DNA from: Escherichia phage Ec_Makalu_001 | Length of the DNA: 64,000 nt | Sequence record: MN894885.1 | Reading direction: 5' to 3' (one strand) | Shown here: one piece after another, positions 31,679 through 61,661 of the stretch | How the letters are laid out: each line of letters starts with the position of its first letter | Numbering within the stretch: position 1 is the first letter of the stretch | Notes under the pieces: generated by a model | What the model saw: only the letters and a program-made list of their open reading frames with translations | What the model was told of the DNA's origin: nothing | The model's database searches: none | Position numbers and translations under genes: made by a program

Positions 31679-32130
31679 TATTTCTCCTTCGGTTTACACC
31701 GTTCCTCATTGAGTTCTTTGCGATAATAACACATGATCAACTTACTTTCAAGTGTATATCTCTTAATATCAGCCAACCAGACTCTAAATTTTTGGGAGTC
31801 CTCCCATGACATAGAAACTCTAGGCTTACCGTCTATTGTATCCACATTCAGGTCAATGTCAACTTTTTCTATTGGTGCTGGTAGTGGTGGATGTAATTTC
31901 GGTTCCTGTGAATAATGGTCCAGTGTACACGAAGAAAGAGCAAATACAATAGGCACAGCGAAGACATGGATTATGGCGGTCTGAAAATTCTTATGTGTTT
32001 TCTTAAATATCCAGTGTATCACGAAAATTGAAAACACCATCAGGATAATAATGCTTGCACCTATCCACAGATAATCAACCAGATTAAAATTGCTTATCTG
32101 CTCTTGCGTAGGCAATATTTCTATGCTCAT
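31678..32130 (-). CDS. Putative o-spanin lipoprotein (PseT.2-like); start uncertain
   Basis: Internal signal-like segment ending in lipobox ALSSC; Pro-rich periplasmic region; position matches the T4 spanin pair next to pseT. Confidence 0.4.
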   Translation of the reverse strand: MSIEILPTQEQISNFNLVDYLWIGASIIILMVFSIFVIHWIFKKTHKNFQTAIIHVFAVPIVFALSSCTLDHYSQEPKLHPPLPAPIEKVDIDLNVDTIDGKPRVSMSWEDSQKFRVWLADIKRYTLESKLIMCYYRKELNEERCKPKEK

Positions 32131-32501
32131 TTAGTAGCCTCCTTTAATTCTTCGGTAAACTCCTTAAATGAGTCATTAAGCTGTTTCTCTACCAACTTGG
32201 GTTTTTGTGCTACTACATAGCCTCGTGTAGCGTCTTTCATTGCTTTGTTTTGTTCTTCTGCAAACTTAGTTCTTATTCCGTACATATCCTTTTGTAGTGA
32301 GTCTACGACCTTCATCTTTTCATCTGTCTTTTTCTTATACTCTGTAAATTCCTGATTCAGTCGATCTACCTCCTTTTTATTTTCCCACCACATATTGCCA
32401 CCTACCCCCAGCAACACAGATATGATAACAATGTATATCAGCTTTGACATATTACCCCCAACGACAAAAGGCGGGGAACTAGCCCCGCTTATTATTACCA
32501 A
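32127..32501 (-). CDS. Putative i-spanin (PseT.3-like)
   Basis: N-terminal TM segment (LIYIVIISVLLGVGG) followed by charged coiled-coil; ATGA overlap with the downstream lipoprotein gene. Confidence 0.4.
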   Translation of the reverse strand: MVIISGASSPPFVVGGNMSKLIYIVIISVLLGVGGNMWWENKKEVDRLNQEFTEYKKKTDEKMKVVDSLQKDMYGIRTKFAEEQNKAMKDATRGYVVAQKPKLVEKQLNDSFKEFTEELKEATK

Positions 32502-44434: not shown

Positions 44435-45382
44435 TTACATCGCTAACAGAGAATCCAGGTCATCCAGATCAGAAGCGGAGGAAGTACCGCCACTCAGGTC
44501 CAGAGATGCCATCAGGTCATCAGCGGAAGAATCTAACGCCGTGCTAGCGGCGGTAGTACCAGCGTCGAATGCATTCATCTGTGCGTCAAAATCGTCAAGC
44601 TGGCTGTTAATCGCTGCCGCAGCACTGGAAGCCGCAGCACCAGCTACCATAGACACGCCCATAGTTTTCTTAAATTTGGTTTCCAGTTCGTCAAACGGTT
44701 TAAACTGGCTAGGTGCTACAATCTCACCCAAATCAACCATGTTTTCCATCAGATATTTCTGGTATGCTTCGTCTTCAATTTTCGGAAGCTGTGATTGCTG
44801 CATGAAACGAGAATCATCATAGTTCTGGTGTTTATCAACCTTCTTAGCTTTCAGGAGGAAGTTAGCGCCAGAGAACACACAAGTTACATCTACCGGAACT
44901 TCGCCCATGTCGGTATTCACGTTCACCATCGCAACGATCTTATCATAAATTTTCTGACCGAAGCGGAATTTAAATACCTTGCCTTCGTTTTCTGGTGCTT
45001 GAGGATCTTTCAGTACCAGAATGTTTGCGTAGTAAGACGCTTTACGCTTAATCAGTTGCCATTCGGTTTTATCGGTATTGTACAAATCTTTTTCGTTAAT
45101 ATATTTGCACACAGGGCAAGAATCAAAATCACCGTGGGTGCTGGAGCAGTTTTCCCAATACCATTTTCCATTAACTTTGAAGGAATGGTTTACCAGTTTC
45201 ACAATCGGCAGACCGTCTTCTGTCTTAGACGGCAGGAAGCGAATCAGGGCTTCACCGTTACCTGCTGCATCAGTCTTAATCTTCCACTCTTTCGGGTCTT
45301 CTTTGGAGAAACCGTTGCCACCTTTCAGTGCGGCCAGTTGAGCTTGCAGTTTGGAAGAATCTTGGCGTTTAAACATATTCAC
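44435..45382 (-). CDS. 32: Single-stranded DNA-binding protein gp32
   Basis: 315 aa; LIRFLPSK, HxFxxNGKWY, zinc-binding Cys/His, [12 protein letters not shown], acidic C-terminal tail; as T4 gp32. Confidence 0.9.
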
Positions 45383-45436
45383 TATTCCTTCTTTTGATTA
45401 ATTTACGAGACTATTATACAGATTTAAATTTACTTG

Positions 45437-46117
45437 TCAACTATTTGTTTCGGCTTTTAATTGAGATATTTCTTTACACTCTTTAACGACTTTAACAAAT
45501 AATGCTCTTGCTTTTGCGGCGTCAATAACAAGTAGTTTCTTGTACGCCTTCATTTTAACACTATAAGTTTGCCAAATCAAGTCTTTGGCTACCTTGTCGT
45601 GTTCGTCGATTATATTTAGAAAGCTATCTAACAACATAAACGACTCAAACGATATAATCCGATTTTGCAGTAGTTTAAAGATACCGCTAGTTTCGGTTGC
45701 GGGATTGTATGTAATTAGCTCTTTAAGAGTAACCCCGCGTTTCTCGGAGAAGTATACCAGACTTTTAATGTCATCGTCAAATCGTGTTGCCGCATCGGTT
45801 ATCTTTCCTATGTATTCCATATAAAAGCCGTATGCGTCAACATCAGTGATTTCACCTACCCATGCATCGGTATTAGCTACCAGATTGCTTAGGAATAGGA
45901 AGTATAATTCTCTTAGATTGTACTTTTCCGCTAATTTCGCGAAATAATACTTATCTCTGCGTTTATTGAATGCGGCATCAGATAACCGCATCCTCCAATT
46001 GTATTTTACGCAATCATAACGCCCGTTCATATGAGCTTTCATCATGCAATATAACATATACACAGATTTAGCATTAATTCGCATATCTGGATCTGGAGGA
46101 AGACGGTTTCTGATCAT
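45437..46117 (-). CDS. 59: Helicase loader gp59
   Basis: 226 aa; KSVYxLYxMxKxHMNGxYD, SNLVAN, IISFExFxLLDSFLNIIDxHD as T4 gp59. Confidence 0.88.
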   Translation of the reverse strand: MIRNRLPPDPDMRINAKSVYMLYCMMKAHMNGRYDCVKYNWRMRLSDAAFNKRRDKYYFAKLAEKYNLRELYFLFLSNLVANTDAWVGEITDVDAYGFYMEYIGKITDAATRFDDDIKSLVYFSEKRGVTLKELITYNPATETSGIFKLLQNRIISFESFMLLDSFLNIIDEHDKVAKDLIWQTYSVKMKAYKKLLVIDAAKARALFVKVVKECKEISQLKAETNS

Positions 46118-46126
46118 ACATACCCC

Positions 46127-46396
46127 TTAAATATCGAGAGTGTTGGTCGGTTCGTCGATCACTCCCTTCCTGAGCGTTCTATTTACTATACATTCTTGTG
46201 TGATCTTGTCAATAATGGACACCGGAATATACTTCTGATAGTGACCATATTCGATAGAGTTTTCCTCTACAAACTGCGTTGTCGCTTCAAGATAAGTCAA
46301 TCCCTCTTCAACAACCAGTTTTTCGATTGCAAGACCGTTTGCTGTTTTGTTCGCGGCTTTTACCGCATGTTCATTAAGCATTGAACACCCGATCAT
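46127..46396 (-). CDS. 33: Late transcription co-activator gp33
   Basis: 89 aa; YLEATTxFxEENSI and C-terminal NTLD as T4 gp33. Confidence 0.75.
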   Translation of the reverse strand: MIGCSMLNEHAVKAANKTANGLAIEKLVVEEGLTYLEATTQFVEENSIEYGHYQKYIPVSIIDKITQECIVNRTLRKGVIDEPTNTLDI

Positions 46397-53587: not shown

Positions 53588-55078
53588 ATGGCAGATTTGA
53601 AATATGGATCTACTGTAGGTGGATCTCCCATTTGGACGCAAGGAAACTTGACGATCCAGCCAGCGGGGGATCAGCTTTTCTACAAAGGTCATAAAATCTA
53701 TACCGCTTTTGATAGACCTTCGGCTACCGATTTTGATGCTGTTAGTGCATCCGAAGGTGGCACATTTCAAAAGCAAGTTCATTTCGAGGAAGGTTTAAGC
53801 GTAGGTAGCGCATCGGCTGGAGAAACCAAAAAGAATGGTATCTTTAAAGGTCAGAGTGACGCTGCTAATTTTGACGGTGTAAGCTGGGGTTTGCATTCAT
53901 GGAAGTCAATCGGCTTTGTTAATGCCCGTGATGGCGTTATCATGGCTTATATTGACACCACAACGGGCGAATTTAAGTCTAAAGGGACTATCGAAGGGAC
54001 AACCATTAAAGACACAGGTCAACGCGTCTATAGCCCTGTTAATAAACCAACGAATAATGATTTAGATTTGGTGTCTCGTCGCGGTGATACCCTCACAGGA
54101 ACATATAATTTAAACACTGTCACTGTTAAACTATCGGTTGATTCGAAATTAATTGCAAGGGAACGTGATTTAATTAATTTTGATGCGACTAAGATCTATT
54201 ATGGTAACGTTCTTGATACGTTGGTATTCCGAAGTAAAGATGAGCCTACCATTTTTGTTAATGGCAAAGAAGGTCGTTTTTATCACACCAACAATAAACC
54301 AACTAAAGCCGATGTGGGACTAGGCAATGTCACCAATGATGCACAGGTTAAACGTGCTGGTGATATTATGGAAGGTAACTTGCAAGCGCCTAGAATGTTG
54401 GCGACAAACGATCCTGCTGGTCCGAATGAATTGGTTCGTTTGAGCTACTTTGAGAGAAAATCAATGGTAGCAAATCCAACCATCATAGGAAACGTTGATT
54501 GGAACACTCTTATTAATCGCGGTATCTATCGTGTGGAAAATGCGGGATCAGGTACTAATAAACCGTCTGATAGCTATTATAACGGCGTTTTGATGGTATA
54601 CCGACCAGAAGATGCGGTCGGTACTCGTCGAATTGTTCAGGTGTATTATCCTGAATCTATTGACCATCCGATGTGCTGGCGTTCTTGTTCTAATGAATCG
54701 TGGACTGCATGGAACTATGTGGATCACCGTAAATTAGCCGATATTCGCTATGTTAACGTAACTGGAGATACCATGACAGGGCCGTTAACTGTTCCGGCTG
54801 CAAATGGCGTTAGAACGGCTAGAGGTGCATATAATGGTGATAACTACTATGCTGGGTTAAATAGTGCCGATGGCACGGCTATGATTCACCGTATCAGCGA
54901 TATTAAAGCCACCGAAAAATTGGGGATCACCCACGACTCAAAGGTCGTGTTTTTCCGTTCTAGAAACAATACTCAAACCGTGGATCGCTATCAGCTTTAT
55001 CATGAAGGTAATAAACCTACTCCGGCTGATGTTGGTGCGGTTCCACTTAATGCGGTGATTGATTTTGGTACTTTCTAA
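53588..55078 (+). CDS. 36: Long tail fibre distal connector gp36 (enlarged)
   Basis: 496 aa; N-terminus MADLKYGSTVGGSPIWTQGN...PAGDxLxYKxxKIY matches T4 gp36, but the protein is about twice the T4 length; contains HxxNKPTxADVG fibre repeats. Confidence 0.75.
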   Translation: MADLKYGSTVGGSPIWTQGNLTIQPAGDQLFYKGHKIYTAFDRPSATDFDAVSASEGGTFQKQVHFEEGLSVGSASAGETKKNGIFKGQSDAANFDGVSWGLHSWKSIGFVNARDGVIMAYIDTTTGEFKSKGTIEGTTIKDTGQRVYSPVNKPTNNDLDLVSRRGDTLTGTYNLNTVTVKLSVDSKLIARERDLINFDATKIYYGNVLDTLVFRSKDEPTIFVNGKEGRFYHTNNKPTKADVGLGNVTNDAQVKRAGDIMEGNLQAPRMLATNDPAGPNELVRLSYFERKSMVANPTIIGNVDWNTLINRGIYRVENAGSGTNKPSDSYYNGVLMVYRPEDAVGTRRIVQVYYPESIDHPMCWRSCSNESWTAWNYVDHRKLADIRYVNVTGDTMTGPLTVPAANGVRTARGAYNGDNYYAGLNSADGTAMIHRISDIKATEKLGITHDSKVVFFRSRNNTQTVDRYQLYHEGNKPTPADVGAVPLNAVIDFGTF

Positions 55079-55148: not shown

Positions 55149-58091
55149 ATGGCAGATTTAAGCAGAATCCAATTTAAACGTACTAGCACTAAAGGCCGTC
55201 GACCTGATGCTGGTACGATGAATCCGGGGGAATTGGCAATCAACCTTGCGGATCAATATCTTCTTACTAAAAATGATTCCGGCGCTATTATCAATTTAAG
55301 TTGTCCTCCGGTTTATGACCGTGATGTTACAATGGCGGGTAAGGTTAAAGGAAATAATTATATTTTAAGTAAAACCGCCAATTATCTGGAAGACCAGACA
55401 GCGAGAGATCTTAACTACTTTGGTGCTTTCCGTACCAATAGTCTAGATGGACTCATGGATCTAACCCTTAACGTTCCTCACTCTTCCGGTAAAGCGCATG
55501 GTCGAGGATTTACTTTCCGTTATGGGACTGGCGGATCTCGTGTTGAAACCTATGGTTTTGATGTTCAGGGACAAAAAGCATTTAGTTATAAAATGTATCA
55601 TGAAGGGGATAAACCGACTCCCTCAGAATTGAACGTTTATAGCAAACAAGAAGTTGACCGTATGTTTGTTAAAACCGTTAAACTTGCTACAGTTCCTGTT
55701 GATATCGTTGACGGTTATTTTAAATTAGCAACTGCATTGATTCCGCAAAACGGTCGTAGTGTATTTTTCCGTATTCATGGTGGTAACGGATATAACGTTA
55801 CTGCATACGATCAAGTTGATATTGTAGAAATTGTTATTCGCAGTGGAAATAATCGTCCTAAAGGTGTTAACGTTATTGCATACCGCCGAAATACAAACAA
55901 AGCATTTGATGTTTTGGCTGTTAATACTTCTGGTGATAACTATGATATCTACGTGAAATATCAGCGTTACACTGATAACGTTATTGTTGAATTTGGTAAA
56001 AGTGTTGATGTTGATCTGGTGGTTCATGACGTTCCAGACTTTGTTGTTGATCGTCCTGTTGGTGATAATGTTATTGGCGGTCGCGCGGTAACTCTTTTTA
56101 ACACCGAAAACAAACGAGGTGTGTTGAGTTTTGACGATAACACACAAAATAGTTATGATATTGTTCACTTGAGTAATGATAAAGGTACTGGAAGGAAATA
56201 TATTCGTAAATTCCGTAGTAACTATAATGAAATGATCTGGCATGAGACGGTTCAAGGTTCCAGTTATCGACTCGCCACGGGTAGTACAGATGCTCAGGAA
56301 ATTATAACTATTGAATCTAGTAGCTCAATTGCTGGAACTCATAAAGGTAATATTATTTCTGGTCGTATGCTGTTAAATGGCGGATCTAATGCCATTACAC
56401 TACGCCGACCTGCTGGTCAGTCTAATCATATCGCTTTTCAGGATAACCGCACCGGAGATATTACTCGTCAAGGATGGATCGGTTATGCAAACGCTGATAC
56501 TAACGTTTTTGAATGGTATAGTGATGTAGGCGGTAGTTCTATTCGTCAACATATTGACGGCCAGATAGAACTTCAAACTGGCAATATGAAGCGAGTTTAT
56601 ACTAACGCTCAATTCATCTCAATGAATAGCGACGCCTACCGTATGCTCTATGGTAATTATGGTGCATTCTGGCGTAATGACGGCGTTAAAGTTTATCTTC
56701 TTTCTACTGCCGAAAATGATAAATTGGGCGGATGGAATACTTATCGTCCATTCATTTATGATTTAACTTCCGGTAACGTTCAATTAGGTGGTGATGGTAA
56801 CGAAGATGCATTAACTTTAGAATGTGCTTCTCGTGCCGCTCGCTTTAGTAATGACGTTTACATTAAGAAAGGGCTTTTGACTTTCGACGCTGGGCGCGCT
56901 GGGTCTCGCGATTATATTCGATTTAATCATTGGGGTGATAGCAATAATGCTCGTGATAACGTTTTGTACATAGAAGATAGTCAAGGCCGACATTTTAGCA
57001 CAGAACGTGCGATGGGTACTGGTGCTCTTAAAGCATACTTCTTAGGCGATCTTGAAGTCGGTGGTAAGTTTACTTGGGGTAAAAATACAGCTACATCTAG
57101 CTTTAATATTCGTGCATGGGGTAGTGATTCTCGTAAGCAAGTATTAGAATGCGCGGATGAAAGTGGTTGGCATTGGTATACCCAGCGACCGGGCGGTCCG
57201 GGTACTTCGGCAATTGAGTTTGCCATCAACGGTACTGTTAAGCCTCAAGCAATTCATACTGGCGGCAATATTCTTTTGAACGGTGCCGATATTGAATTTC
57301 GTCGCACCGGTAATAAGCATTTGTGGTTTAGAGATCCAGACGGTTTAGAGTTAGGCTTGATGTACTGCGATGATGCTGGTGCTATTCGCTTCCGTGGTCA
57401 GAAACAAGCCCAGACGTGGAAATTTGCAGATAAAATGATCCAGTTGGAATCTGGTACTGTATCTGGTGGCGGTAATGGCCTGATTCGTGGTGAAGTTGCT
57501 GGCGGTAGTTGGGCTAGCTGGCGTGACCGTCCTGCTGGTCTTATGGTTGGGTGTCCTCAATCCGTTGACTCGGCACATAACGTATGGAAAGCGACGCATT
57601 GGGGTAAATATCATATCGCAGCAATGGGTGTACATGTTCCTAGTGGTACTATTACCAATGCTTTAGCTCGCCTAAACGTTCATGACGCCAACTTTGACTT
57701 TAGCGCCTCCGGTGACCTGTCGGTAGGTCGTAATGGTTCGTTTAACGATGTTTATATTCGTTCTGATGCTCGCCTTAAAATCAACAAAGAAGAGTATAAA
57801 GAGAATGCCACCGATAAAGTTAATCGCTTGACGGTATACACCTATGACAAGGTTAAATCTTTAACCGACCGTACTGTCATTGCTCATGAAGTTGGTATTA
57901 TTGCTCAGGAACTTGAAAAAGAATTGCCGGAAGCAGTAACAACTTCTAAGGTCGGCGATCCTGATAAGCCAGAAGAGATCTTAACAATTTCTAACTCTGC
58001 TGTCAACGCTCTTTTAATTAAGGCGTTTCAGGAAATGAGCGAAGAATTGAAAGCCGTTAAAGCTGAACTAGCGGAACTTAAAAAGAATTAA
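55149..58091 (+). CDS. 37: Long tail fibre distal subunit gp37 with C-terminal intramolecular-chaperone-like module
   Basis: 980 aa; N-terminus IQFKRTxxxGxRPxAxxxxxGELAINLxD...DSGxII(N/D)L matches T4 gp37; C-terminal ~110 aa begins at RS-DARLK and is coiled-coil-rich, resembling self-cleaving tail-fibre chaperone domains. Confidence 0.8.
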   Translation: MADLSRIQFKRTSTKGRRPDAGTMNPGELAINLADQYLLTKNDSGAIINLSCPPVYDRDVTMAGKVKGNNYILSKTANYLEDQTARDLNYFGAFRTNSLDGLMDLTLNVPHSSGKAHGRGFTFRYGTGGSRVETYGFDVQGQKAFSYKMYHEGDKPTPSELNVYSKQEVDRMFVKTVKLATVPVDIVDGYFKLATALIPQNGRSVFFRIHGGNGYNVTAYDQVDIVEIVIRSGNNRPKGVNVIAYRRNTNKAFDVLAVNTSGDNYDIYVKYQRYTDNVIVEFGKSVDVDLVVHDVPDFVVDRPVGDNVIGGRAVTLFNTENKRGVLSFDDNTQNSYDIVHLSNDKGTGRKYIRKFRSNYNEMIWHETVQGSSYRLATGSTDAQEIITIESSSSIAGTHKGNIISGRMLLNGGSNAITLRRPAGQSNHIAFQDNRTGDITRQGWIGYANADTNVFEWYSDVGGSSIRQHIDGQIELQTGNMKRVYTNAQFISMNSDAYRMLYGNYGAFWRNDGVKVYLLSTAENDKLGGWNTYRPFIYDLTSGNVQLGGDGNEDALTLECASRAARFSNDVYIKKGLLTFDAGRAGSRDYIRFNHWGDSNNARDNVLYIEDSQGRHFSTERAMGTGALKAYFLGDLEVGGKFTWGKNTATSSFNIRAWGSDSRKQVLECADESGWHWYTQRPGGPGTSAIEFAINGTVKPQAIHTGGNILLNGADIEFRRTGNKHLWFRDPDGLELGLMYCDDAGAIRFRGQKQAQTWKFADKMIQLESGTVSGGGNGLIRGEVAGGSWASWRDRPAGLMVGCPQSVDSAHNVWKATHWGKYHIAAMGVHVPSGTITNALARLNVHDANFDFSASGDLSVGRNGSFNDVYIRSDARLKINKEEYKENATDKVNRLTVYTYDKVKSLTDRTVIAHEVGIIAQELEKELPEAVTTSKVGDPDKPEEILTISNSAVNALLIKAFQEMSEELKAVKAELAELKKN

Positions 58092-58131
58092 GGAAACTCC
58101 CAGGGAAGGGAACTACTAAGGAGAAACGGCT

Positions 58132-58371
58132 ATGGTCTATAATATCGTCATTGGTGCTTTGTCTAATTTCGGAATGAAATTATTGTCAAAGTTAATTAGT
58201 GAAAAGATGCTCACTAAAATTTTCTTCTATTGCGCTCGTCGTCTTGCGGCTTATACCAATACGCCAATTGATGATCGTTTTGTGGAAGAACTTTATAAGG
58301 AGTTTAATAAAGATCAGTCGGAAGATAGTAACGAGCAAGATAAACCTAGTGATAGTCAACTACCTAAATAA
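58132..58371 (+). CDS. Hypothetical small protein (79 aa) between gene 37 and t
   Basis: ORF with AAGGAG RBS; hydrophobic N-terminus, acidic C-terminus; too short to be a gp38 adhesin. Confidence 0.4.
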   Translation: MVYNIVIGALSNFGMKLLSKLISEKMLTKIFFYCARRLAAYTNTPIDDRFVEELYKEFNKDQSEDSNEQDKPSDSQLPK

Positions 58372-58404
58372 GAGTACACTGTCATAGTTATCTTAGGGCA
58401 TTAT

Positions 58405-59061
58405 ATGCAAGTTTCTGAAAAAGGGAAAGACTTTGCTATCTCAAATGTCCTGCGCGCTATTTTCACAACTAAAAGCACGGAGTTGCTCGTACTTCGTGTT
58501 TTTGCTGCCGTCGTGTTGTCCATATTAGCATTTGTCGTTTATAGTAAAAACGAGTTATTCGCGCTTTATAAAGAGACTCGTTATGAGACTTATGCTCACA
58601 TTCTCCAGGTAGAGAAAGACCGCAATTTTGATAATGCAGCACAGGAGCAGTTACAGATAGTTCATGTATCGGCTGATGCCGATTTTTCTGCTGTTTTTAG
58701 TTTTCGTCCGAAAAACCTAAACTATTTTGTTGATTTGGTGGCATATGAAGGAAAGCTACCGCATACAATCGATGAAAAAAATTTAGGCGGATTCCCTATC
58801 AATAAAACGAGTGAAGAATATCGTAGGCATCTTTTAGGTAAATCCTATTTTACCGATAAAGATTTCCAGTATATTCCATCGAGGGAGAAAAAATTAGAGA
58901 ATATTGATATAGGGTTTATGTATTCTTGTCCTATATTCAATCTCGATAATGTCTATTCTGGTAGTATTGCCATTTCATGGAAGAATAAACCAGATATTGA
59001 TATCGAGAATTTAGATACTCTTTGTAATCAATCTGCCAGAATCCTCGGAAGGATTAGATAA
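58405..59061 (+). CDS. t: Holin
   Basis: 218 aa (same as T4 T); single TM; YKxxxYETYxxIxxxExxxxFxxxAxEQLQIVHxSxxADFSAVxSFRPKNLNYFVDxxAYEGKLP and C-terminal ARILGR as T4 holin T. Confidence 0.9.
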   Translation: MQVSEKGKDFAISNVLRAIFTTKSTELLVLRVFAAVVLSILAFVVYSKNELFALYKETRYETYAHILQVEKDRNFDNAAQEQLQIVHVSADADFSAVFSFRPKNLNYFVDLVAYEGKLPHTIDEKNLGGFPINKTSEEYRRHLLGKSYFTDKDFQYIPSREKKLENIDIGFMYSCPIFNLDNVYSGSIAISWKNKPDIDIENLDTLCNQSARILGRIR

Positions 59062-59065
59062 CTTA

Positions 59066-59099
59066 AAGGGGAAGCCTTTCGGCCTCCCCTTCTTTTTTA
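59066..59099 (+). terminator. Rho-independent terminator after t
   Basis: Hairpin aggggaagcc-tttc-ggcctcccct followed by TTCTTTTTT. Confidence 0.6.
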
Positions 59100-59345
59100 T
59101 TGGCGCATAGAATCCCCTGAATCACATTTTGACGCTGTATGATGAAAACAGGTAGCGTACCAGTCATCGGCTTGTTTGTCTTCGTCAGAAAACGCGTAAT
59201 TTCGTTGTATGCCGTTTTCTACTTTGACCAGTGCAATAGCTGTTTCTGGAAGATCGATCAATCGGACAAAATCACCATCTTCCCACTCTACACGAGCAAT
59301 ATCATAGCCCATCTCAAAGTATACAATCGCTTGTTCTAGTTTCAT
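59097..59345 (-). CDS. Hypothetical protein (82 aa)
   Basis: ORF in the minus-strand early cluster. Confidence 0.4.
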   Translation of the reverse strand: MKLEQAIVYFEMGYDIARVEWEDGDFVRLIDLPETAIALVKVENGIQRNYAFSDEDKQADDWYATCFHHTASKCDSGDSMRQ

Positions 59346-60902: not shown

Positions 60903-61661
60903 TTACTTGCAAACGTATTGATCTACATCAATTGCGCCACCGAATGTAGGATGACGTTTTTCAAATCGAATCGTTCCGTCGTTTGGTTCGAAAACGGAGT
61001 ATTCATATAGATCTTTCTTGCCAACATTCTTATAAAACCCGCCTTTAGTCATAACGGTTTCTTGTACGTTTGCTTTGTGTACATTGTATTCATCAATGTA
61101 CACAAAATCAACCATCTTCCCATTTTTAATAGTTACTTTAAGATCCCCTGGCTGGTTTCCATATTTTGCATACAGTGGAGATTCTTTAATTTTGGTGGAA
61201 ATTCCATCTTTCATACTCCACTCATAACGAACGGTGCATTGATAGGTAAAAGTTTCGACCTTCGGTTCTTCCACCACTTTTTCTTCCTGTTTCGGTTGTT
61301 CTTCTTCAATCTTCGCAGAAGTCTCTGAATCGCTTTCTGACGCGGTTTCTTCTTTAGGTAATACATTCATTAAGTTTTGGATTTGAGCGTTATATACAGC
61401 CTCCAGTGGCTGAATCTGCCCGATATTGATCATTGTATCACGAACAGTTTTATTCCAGTTGCGTTGCTCTTGTTTCAGAGACGGATCAATCTTAACAGCC
61501 TTAACATATACTTCATGAAGTTTAGAATCAAGTGCGGAGATTGACTCGTTAGCACAAATAAACTTCTCTGATTTGGTAGTAGCCTTAGTGCAATCAAAGG
61601 ACGCAGCATTAGCACCGATGGCAGTAGCAGAAAGAAAGATAGCAGCGATAATGTTTTTCAT
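60903..61661 (-). CDS. Secreted protein with LprI/DUF1311-like N-terminal domain
   Basis: 252 aa; signal peptide (MKNIIAAIFLSATAIGANA-AS); motif FDCTKATTKSEKFICANESISALDSKLHEVY matches the Cys-x-Cys-containing DUF1311 pattern; acidic linker and beta-rich C-terminal domain with a second Cys pair. Confidence 0.5.
   Translation of the reverse strand: MKNIIAAIFLSATAIGANAASFDCTKATTKSEKFICANESISALDSKLHEVYVKAVKIDPSLKQEQRNWNKTVRDTMINIGQIQPLEAVYNAQIQNLMNVLPKEETASESDSETSAKIEEEQPKQEEKVVEEPKVETFTYQCTVRYEWSMKDGISTKIKESPLYAKYGNQPGDLKVTIKNGKMVDFVYIDEYNVHKANVQETVMTKGGFYKNVGKKDLYEYSVFEPNDGTIRFEKRHPTFGGAIDVDQYVCK

Follow-up and report, generated by a model that had tools for sequence, protein, structure and literature searches.

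An S74-type chaperone domain on gp37, a gp38 gene predicted outside the window and a P18-like ORF beside the holin in the distal tail-fibre module of a Krischvirus

In Salmonella phage S16 and coliphage T2 (PDB 6F45), gp37 ends in an S74-type intramolecular chaperone (IMC) with the motif x^SDxRxK, and gp38, encoded next to gene 37, is an adhesin that combines a Gp38_N domain for docking with a glycine-rich domain that binds the receptor. Autoproteolytic release of the IMC has been shown by experiment in S16, T2, T5 and K1F, and in both the L-shaped fibre of T5 (pb1) and the endosialidase of K1F (MEROPS S74; PDB 4UW8, 3GW6) the chaperone likewise forms the very C-terminal end of a trimeric fibre of beta-helical type. 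The T4 tip is of the needle type, and its folding depends on the chaperones gp38 and gp57A. For RB49, gp37 has been described with a self-cleaving chaperone domain and g38 as "displaced to a distant locus", its former place being taken by a small ORF, and in five krischviruses gp38 has been located about 55 kb downstream of gp37.

We analysed a 64-kb stretch of Escherichia phage Ec_Makalu_001 (hereafter the window) containing the distal long-tail-fibre genes. The source phage is a Krischvirus, that is, an RB49/Phi1-like T4-type coliphage, with 96.5% identity to Ec_Makalu_003; gene 37 was likewise 96.5% identical in DNA to that of Ec_Makalu_003, and 27 database records covered at least 80% of the query. 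Gene 37 (55149..58091, + strand) encodes the distal long-tail-fibre subunit precursor of 980 aa (phrog_1699, "long tail fiber protein distal subunit", E = 5e-196), and gene t (58405..59061, + strand) encodes a T-type holin of 218 aa (PF11031, Phage_holin_T, E = 4.5e-61; 48.5% identity to T4 t). As in T4, whose t is homologous, gene 37 lies between gene 36 and t. In RB49, Phi1 and JSE the order gene 36-37-ORF251(Dc5)-t is the same as here, the lengths agree (gp36 496 aa, gp37 969-980 aa, ORF 79 aa, t 218 aa) and DNA identity to the window locus is 86-96%, the differences being allelic only and confined to the gp37 shaft (aa 560-760 relative to Phi1 and Makalu_003). The late promoter consensus TATAAATA was found upstream of genes 34 and 36 and not upstream of gene 37, the 79-aa ORF or t, with a total count not above chance. 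As a whole, the locus is the usual distal module of the Krischvirus long tail fibre, and the findings have all been published before (Trojet 2011; Krupovic 2007; Efimov 2022), leaving current understanding unchanged.

With high confidence, we read the krischvirus fibre module as an S74-matured gp37 combined with a displaced gp38 adhesin and a P18-like ORF in the gp38 slot. The proposed mechanism is that gp37 would be made as a 980-aa precursor, the last 109 residues of which, an S74-type intramolecular chaperone, would make the chains trimerise and the beta-helical tip of the fibre fold, and would cut themselves off between Arg871 and Ser872 via a Ser872/Lys877 dyad. Cleavage would expose a conserved tip, on which a separately encoded T2/S16-type gp38 would dock by its N-terminal Trp-containing domain, so that the hypervariable receptor-binding loops and the control of host range would reside in gp38 and not in gp37. 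In this genus the gp38 gene has moved downstream, to a site on the circular map about 55 kb from gene 37 and outside the window, and the old gp38 slot holds a gene for a small PM2-P18-like protein, a probable lysis protein that would form one unit with holin t.

A profile search for Peptidase_S74 at the gp37 C-terminus was positive, with gp37 aa 872-931 covering profile positions 1-58 of 58 of PF13884 at 45.1 bits (E = 1.3e-11), far above chance and above the cut-off of 22 bits. Profile position 1 fell on Ser872, and the same family was present in all 42 homologues found. The domain extends over aa 872-980 (57762..58088, + strand) and opens with the motif NDVYIR-S872-DARLK877, in which Ser872, Asp873, Arg875, Leu876 and Lys877 were invariant in 31 aligned homologues and Lys877 lies five residues past Ser872, the spacing of Ser1264/Lys1269 in T5. 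In an AlphaFold2 model of gp37 (a monomer with overall pLDDT 72 and pTM 0.44), most of the S74 domain reached pLDDT 78-93 and formed a mixed alpha/beta fold with a long C-terminal helix (aa 949-979). When this domain was compared with the PDB by Foldseek, the top match was the MyRF ICA domain (7dc3; E = 1.5e-4, probability 1.0, TM-target 0.69), and the GA-1 IMC (3gud; probability 1.0, TM-target 0.56) and the endoNF IMC (3gw6; probability 0.98) were also retrieved. The Pfam match, the invariant residues and the predicted fold agree, supporting the view, already taken in the initial annotation, that gp37 ends in an S74-type intramolecular chaperone. The motif named there was confirmed, while the approximately 105 aa said to follow it became 109 aa from Ser872 to the end, and the description "coiled-coil-rich" applies to the last ~30 aa (the terminal helix), the rest being mixed alpha/beta. 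The likeness drawn to the chaperones of T5 pb1 and endosialidases holds for the domain family, the Ser-x4-Lys dyad, the C-terminal placement and the predicted fold, with low sequence identity (10-15%) in the structural alignments of IMCs of T5/K1F type with gp37; T2/S16 gp37 is nevertheless a better analogy than T5 pb1.

The predicted autoproteolytic site between Arg871 and Ser872 (57759..57764, + strand) reads DVYIR^SDARLKI and is nearly identical to the published fPS-phage site DVYIR^SDGRLKI, which has been aligned to S16 DLNVS^SDRRIKK. Solved relatives are cut on the N-terminal side of the serine, T5 pb1 being cleaved between Thr1263 and Ser1264, and the cut predicted here likewise precedes Ser872, instead of following the serine as had been proposed. 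Such a cut would free 109 aa, compared with the 113 aa released in S16. Judging from relatives and the literature, gp37 of this phage would indeed be processed in this way. Alternatively, the S74 domain could be a decayed remnant that stays uncleaved on the mature fibre. For T5 and K1F, an Arg/Asp "folding sensor" from the neighbouring subunit (oxyanion hole) has been described; here Arg861, at a distance comparable to that in T5, was not obviously conserved in the homologue alignment, and Asp867 and Arg871 were at least 90% conserved. However, a decayed remnant is hardly credible given that both catalytic residues (Ser and Lys) and the nearby motif are invariant across the 31 homologues, that the S74 domain is 95-100% conserved among krischviruses, and that gp38 docking in S16 needs the IMC to be removed.

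Upstream of the putative self-cleaving chaperone, gp37 resembled T4 gp37 over the first 71 aa only and contained a Gp34_trimer-like domain (aa 439-537; 56463..56759, + strand; PF21446, E = 2.3e-23) with a sequence match to the T4 gp34 crystal structures 4uxe/5nxf (E = 4e-14). A Pfam scan of gp37 gave no match to the gp37_C needle domain (PF12604), and a T4-type gp38 chaperone is absent as well, in agreement with the earlier suggestion that the tip is built differently from that of T4. Comparison of five krischviruses showed that the gp37 shaft is variable at aa 280-480 and 560-760, whereas aa 841-871 are 90-100% conserved; the most conserved stretch of gp37 in the genus is the last ~140 aa. 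The distal end of mature gp37 (aa ~721-871; 57309..57761, + strand), which can be aligned with the tip of S16 gp37 as solved in complex with gp38 (6f45), is predicted from this alignment, its conservation and predicted beta-strands to be the docking tip for the gp38 adhesin, a role that it would have by analogy with S16.

No match to the RB49/T2-type gp38 was obtained anywhere in the 64-kb window by tblastn with the RB49 protein, nor was T4 gp38 matched there (best E = 0.49), and the possibility of a gp38 hidden in the window was rejected on these searches together with a negative glycine-rich scan of all ORFs of at least 150 aa. The sole plausible gene between 58091 and t is the 79-aa ORF, and the initial annotation was right that this ORF stands alone there with no T4-type gp38. 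Krischvirus relatives do carry an adhesin gene: a gp38 of 258-259 aa (PF05268 plus PF21721) is encoded in RB49, Phi1, JSE, ECD7, Ec_Makalu_003 and other krischviruses, including all krischvirus relatives that were also among the top matches for the gene 37 region. RB49 gp38 lies at 45367-46143 on the - strand (PF05268, E = 7e-72; Gp38_N, PF21721, E = 6e-18) and contains Trp7 and Trp20, and the Ec_Makalu_003 gene at 45280-46059 was assigned by homology. The domain composition is that of the S16/T2 adhesin, whereas the location differs: on the circular map the krischvirus gene follows gene 37 at a distance of about 55 kb, on the opposite strand and in a small-ORF cluster near rI/tk. The corresponding position is outside the window, where gp38 of this phage is probably encoded, as relatives suggest; the slot after gene 37, occupied by gp38 in S16/T2, holds the PM2-P18-like ORF here. 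In RB49-like phages, a gene 37 without a neighbouring gp38 should not be taken to mean that the phage has no adhesin, because the gene for the receptor-binding protein is found ~55 kb away.

The initial annotation had concluded that host range is determined by gp37 itself, which amounts to a mature gp37 tip that binds the receptor after IMC cleavage, as in T5 pb1, with no separate adhesin in existence. Neither type of gp38 is in the window, the IMC is real, and T5 pb1, the matured tip of which itself binds the receptor, shows that an IMC-matured tip can be a receptor binder. The conclusion could not be upheld, however, because relatives have gp38 adhesin genes about 55 kb away and because the RB49 host-range mutations E230K/Y231S are located in gp38, a protein that has been modelled on OmpA. 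The cleavage motif and tip also align with the gp38-docking gp37 of S16 and the fPS phages, and the 90-100% conservation of the tip fits a gp38 dock and not a receptor-binding tip. Where a tip binds the receptor, it usually varies more than any other part. We therefore regard direct receptor binding by gp37 as very improbable, and favour a matured tip that, unlike that of T5, is the predicted dock for a separate adhesin, with gp38 presumably docking and recognising the receptor in this phage, as relatives and published systems suggest. For annotation of RB49-like phages and prediction of their host range, the gp37 C-terminus would then be treated as a folding module that is discarded, together with a conserved surface for docking.

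The 79-aa ORF in the old gp38 slot (58132..58371, + strand; RB49 ORF251/Dc5 equivalent; phrog_402, E = 5e-20) is preceded by an AAGGAG ribosome-binding site and is homologous to P18 (gp l), a lysis protein of PM2. Precomputed Pfam annotations placed PF26925 (Phage_PM2_Gpl) in 15 of 15 homologues, and a profile of the ORF built without PM2 matched PM2 gp l (17.8 bits, 43/51 aa) and not gp k; a Pfam scan with a model set without PF26925 returned a sub-threshold TPR_LAA1_C match only. RB49 and Felix O1 have been named as carriers of P18 homologues. In PM2, P18 adjoins gp k, and the 79-aa ORF is likewise next to a holin gene, though it is longer than P18 and has an acidic 20-aa tail.

Because it directly follows gene 37, and its homologue in Suspvirus mistaenkt also follows a tail-fibre gene, the ORF could be taken for part of the fibre, acting in place of gp38 as a chaperone or adhesin of miniature size. 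In Suspvirus mistaenkt, however, the upstream fibre is of the T4 gp37_C type without S74, and the homologue is directly upstream of the annotated holin, indicating that the constant neighbour is the holin and not a type of fibre. A tie of the ORF to S74-type fibres was likewise rejected on this homologue and on the unrelated contexts of distant ones, those of Vibrio and Grimontviridae not adjoining fibre genes. The homologues moreover belong to the gp l family of PM2. This phage has no tail, and its P18 contributes to lysis by outer-membrane disruption, a function known for PM2 only. The ORF is also nearly invariant among krischviruses, unlike adhesins. Taken together, these points make a fibre component very improbable, and homology to P18 probably groups the ORF with holin t.

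In this phage, the position beside holin t is what speaks for a lysis role of the 79-aa ORF. Such a role is also suggested by relatives and the literature, in which an outer-membrane role of the P18-like gene in tailed phages has been proposed since 2007 on the basis of homology. Because the T4-type spanins pseT.3/pseT.2 are also present in the window, any such role would be accessory. That the PM2-P18-like gene is functional in disrupting the outer membrane and is expressed together with holin t is a tentative idea that we consider less likely than not; if true, krischviruses and Felix-O1-like phages would have a second, spanin-independent outer-membrane route beside pseT.3/pseT.2.

Gene 36 (53588..55078, + strand), encoding the distal-half connector of the long tail fibre, matched phrog_16472 over its full length and is related to the "hinge connector" family phrog_1425; a PDB sequence search with gp36 gave no match. 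T4 gp36 (221 aa) aligned to aa 1-171 with 37% identity (E = 1e-27). At 496 aa, the length found in all krischvirus relatives examined, gp36 is 2.2 times as long as its T4 counterpart, consistent with the approximate doubling noted previously.

The 3.9-kb segment spanning gene 37 to t was 96.5% identical to Escherichia phage Ec_Makalu_003 and 86-93% identical to ECD7, Phi1, RB49 and JSE. These phages belong to Krischvirus ("pseudo-T-even", RB49-like). Gene order and gene lengths exactly matched Phi1, annotated as rnh, 34, 35, 36, 37, ORF252, t. Gene 37 (55149-58091, + strand; 980 aa) was followed by a 79-aa ORF preceded by AAGGAG (58132-58371, +) and by t (58405-59061, +; Phage_holin_T, E = 4.5e-61). 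ORF content between 58091 and 58405 agreed with the initial annotation, in which just this small ORF separates gene 37 from t; it was the sole credible gene there. The facts observed in that annotation are correct; each element has been described before in RB49-like phages, which makes the finding an ordinary one.

The annotation had also placed an intramolecular-chaperone-like module at the end of gp37, with an RS-DARLK motif followed by ~105 aa. The motif was present (NDVYIR871-S872-DARLK877), while the length was 109 residues, counted from Ser872 to the C-terminus. The Peptidase_S74 search proposed for this end was positive, with PF13884 matching aa 872-931 over profile positions 1-58 of 58 (45.1 bits, cut-off 22 bits; E = 1.3e-11), which confirmed the predicted module. 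A homology search with gp37 aa 720-980 returned 42 proteins, all 42 carrying PF13884; when 31 of them were aligned, Ser872, Asp873, Arg875, Leu876 and Lys877 were invariant and Asp867 and Arg871 were at least 90% conserved. An AlphaFold2 model of the C-terminal part, built from this 31-homologue alignment, had pLDDT 78-93 across most of the last 109 residues; in it, upstream beta-strands are followed by a unit of mixed alpha/beta structure and, at the terminus, a helix of 30 residues. Foldseek against the PDB ranked the auto-processing intramolecular chaperone (IMC) domain of MyRF first (7dc3; E = 1.5e-4, probability 1.0), followed by the IMCs of K1F endosialidase (3gw6) and the GA-1 neck appendage (3gud), and a PDB sequence search matched the gp37 C-terminus to Salmonella phage S16 gp37 in its complex with gp38 (6f45).

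T5 pb1 is cut at Thr1263|Ser1264, the serine, which Lys1269 activates, departing with the chaperone; S16 gp37 is cut at DLNVS^SDRRIKK, releasing 113 residues and exposing the gp38 docking surface; and Tequatrovirus fPS phages carry DVYIR^SDGRLKI at the position aligned to the S16 cut, where gp37 here reads DVYIR-SDARLKI. From comparison of these sites, cleavage is predicted at Arg871|Ser872, N-terminal of the serine and not after it as first annotated.

The absence of a T4-type gp38 before t was borne out, as neither RB49 nor T4 gp38 gave a tblastn match anywhere in the 64-kb window. The location of gp38 has been addressed by Trojet et al., and a 2026 preprint reports that in five krischviruses it lies ~55 kb downstream of gp37, and includes a model of RB49 gp38 on OmpA. 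RB49 gene 38 (GenBank 45367-46143, -), annotated "similar to T2 and RB69 gp38 adhesin", encodes 258 aa with Pfam GP38 (E = 7e-72) and Gp38_N (E = 6e-18), glycine-rich motifs and N-terminal tryptophans. By megablast, the gene occurred in 83 phage records, including every krischvirus among the top matches to gene 37 and its surroundings. Ec_Makalu_003, the closest relative, carries gene 38 at 45280-46059; its gene 37 ends at 153288 of 162,966 bp, so that on the circular map gp38 follows after about 55 kb. The window extends only 5.9 kb past the end of gene 37.

Alignment of gp37 with Phi1, Makalu_003, RB49, JSE and Makalu_002 showed divergence concentrated at aa ~280-480 and ~560-760 and 90-100% identity over the last ~140 residues (tip and IMC), a pattern that agrees with a conserved adhesin dock and not with gp37 itself forming the receptor-binding tip. 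Host-range mutations map to gp38 E230K/Y231S (Efimov et al.). The presence of gp38 in relatives, these mutations and the conserved tip contradict the earlier proposal that gp37 itself sets host range. The tip is most probably a T2/S16-type two-protein design with a relocated adhesin gene, the gp38 of this phage being putative; a T5-like self-sufficient gp37 tip was rejected in its favor.

Displaced gene 38, although a late structural gene, lies on the "early" strand amid small ORFs near rI/tk. Directly upstream (RB49 46144-46200; Ec_Makalu_003, positions 2925-2982 of locus L010), a hairpin (GCCCC-TTAATT-GGGGC) precedes a T-run and resembles promoter-stem-loop shuffling motifs reported for T4-like phages, and the TATAAATA late promoter was absent from these stretches. 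On a 25.7-kb E. coli contig, a 303-aa protein (P0024) carried Gp38_N and the first half of GP38, with a Peptidase_S74 domain at its C-terminus; it represents a gp38-IMC chimera or else an assembly/frameshift artefact. Proteins P0010-P0016, annotated "tail fiber domain-containing protein" on Salmonella enterica contigs of 184 kb-1.1 Mb, shared 53-56% identity across all of gp37 aa 720-980 (tip and IMC). Their long contigs suggest prophage or tailocin fibres, indicating that the predicted gp38-docking tip module circulates beyond T4-like phages.

The 79-aa ORF was nearly invariant among krischviruses and was assigned to phrog_402; by tblastn, 387 phage records contained a homologue, most of them Felix-O1-like, Erwinia and Vibrio phages. 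In Suspvirus mistaenkt, the homologue likewise lies between a tail-fibre gene and an annotated holin, but the fibre there is of T4 gp37_C type without S74, unlike the S74-bearing gp37 here, indicating that the small ORF tracks the holin and not the fibre type. In one Vibrio phage and one Grimontviridae phage it lies away from fibre genes. All homologues in a large protein collection carried precomputed Pfam PF26925 (Phage_PM2_Gpl), and a family profile built without PM2 matched PM2 gp l (17.8 bits) but not PM2 gp k; Krupovic and Bamford (2007) report that PaP3, Felix O1 and RB49 encode homologues of P18 (gp l), a PM2 lysis protein. On homology and synteny, the ORF most likely serves lysis as a partner of t and does not belong to the fibre genes. 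Adjoining pseT, homologues of the T4 spanins pseT.2 and pseT.3 (31693-32378, -; 38% identity, E = 3e-19 and 34% identity, E = 3e-10) give the phage canonical spanins alongside the P18-like ORF, so any lysis role of the latter would be accessory. In a 170-kb krischvirus-like metagenome contig (ERZ27295289 k141_165622), three extra ~100-aa ORFs (locus L015, 5047-5950), none with a Pfam match, separate gene 37 from the P18-like ORF, marking the former gp38 slot as a hot spot for gene insertion.

Gene 36 (53588-55078, +) encodes 496 aa against 221 aa in T4, the roughly doubled length noted initially. T4 gp36 aligned to residues 1-~171, and the C-terminal extension (~275 aa beyond T4 gp36; aa ~200-496) gave neither an above-threshold Pfam match nor any hit in a PDB sequence search, with aa 288-396 matched by PHROG profiles of unknown function. 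Directly 3' of t on the opposite strand, an 82-aa ORF (59097-59345, -) scored 27.9 bits (E = 3.4e-6; cut-off 25 bits) as Tad2-like (Thoeris anti-defence 2), a weak assignment that recurs on krischvirus metagenome contigs and makes it a candidate anti-Thoeris sponge. In a 252-aa ORF (60903-61661, -), residues 24-76 matched the LprI lysozyme-inhibitor domain (26.5 bits, cut-off 22), which is curious in a phage that uses lysozyme for host lysis.
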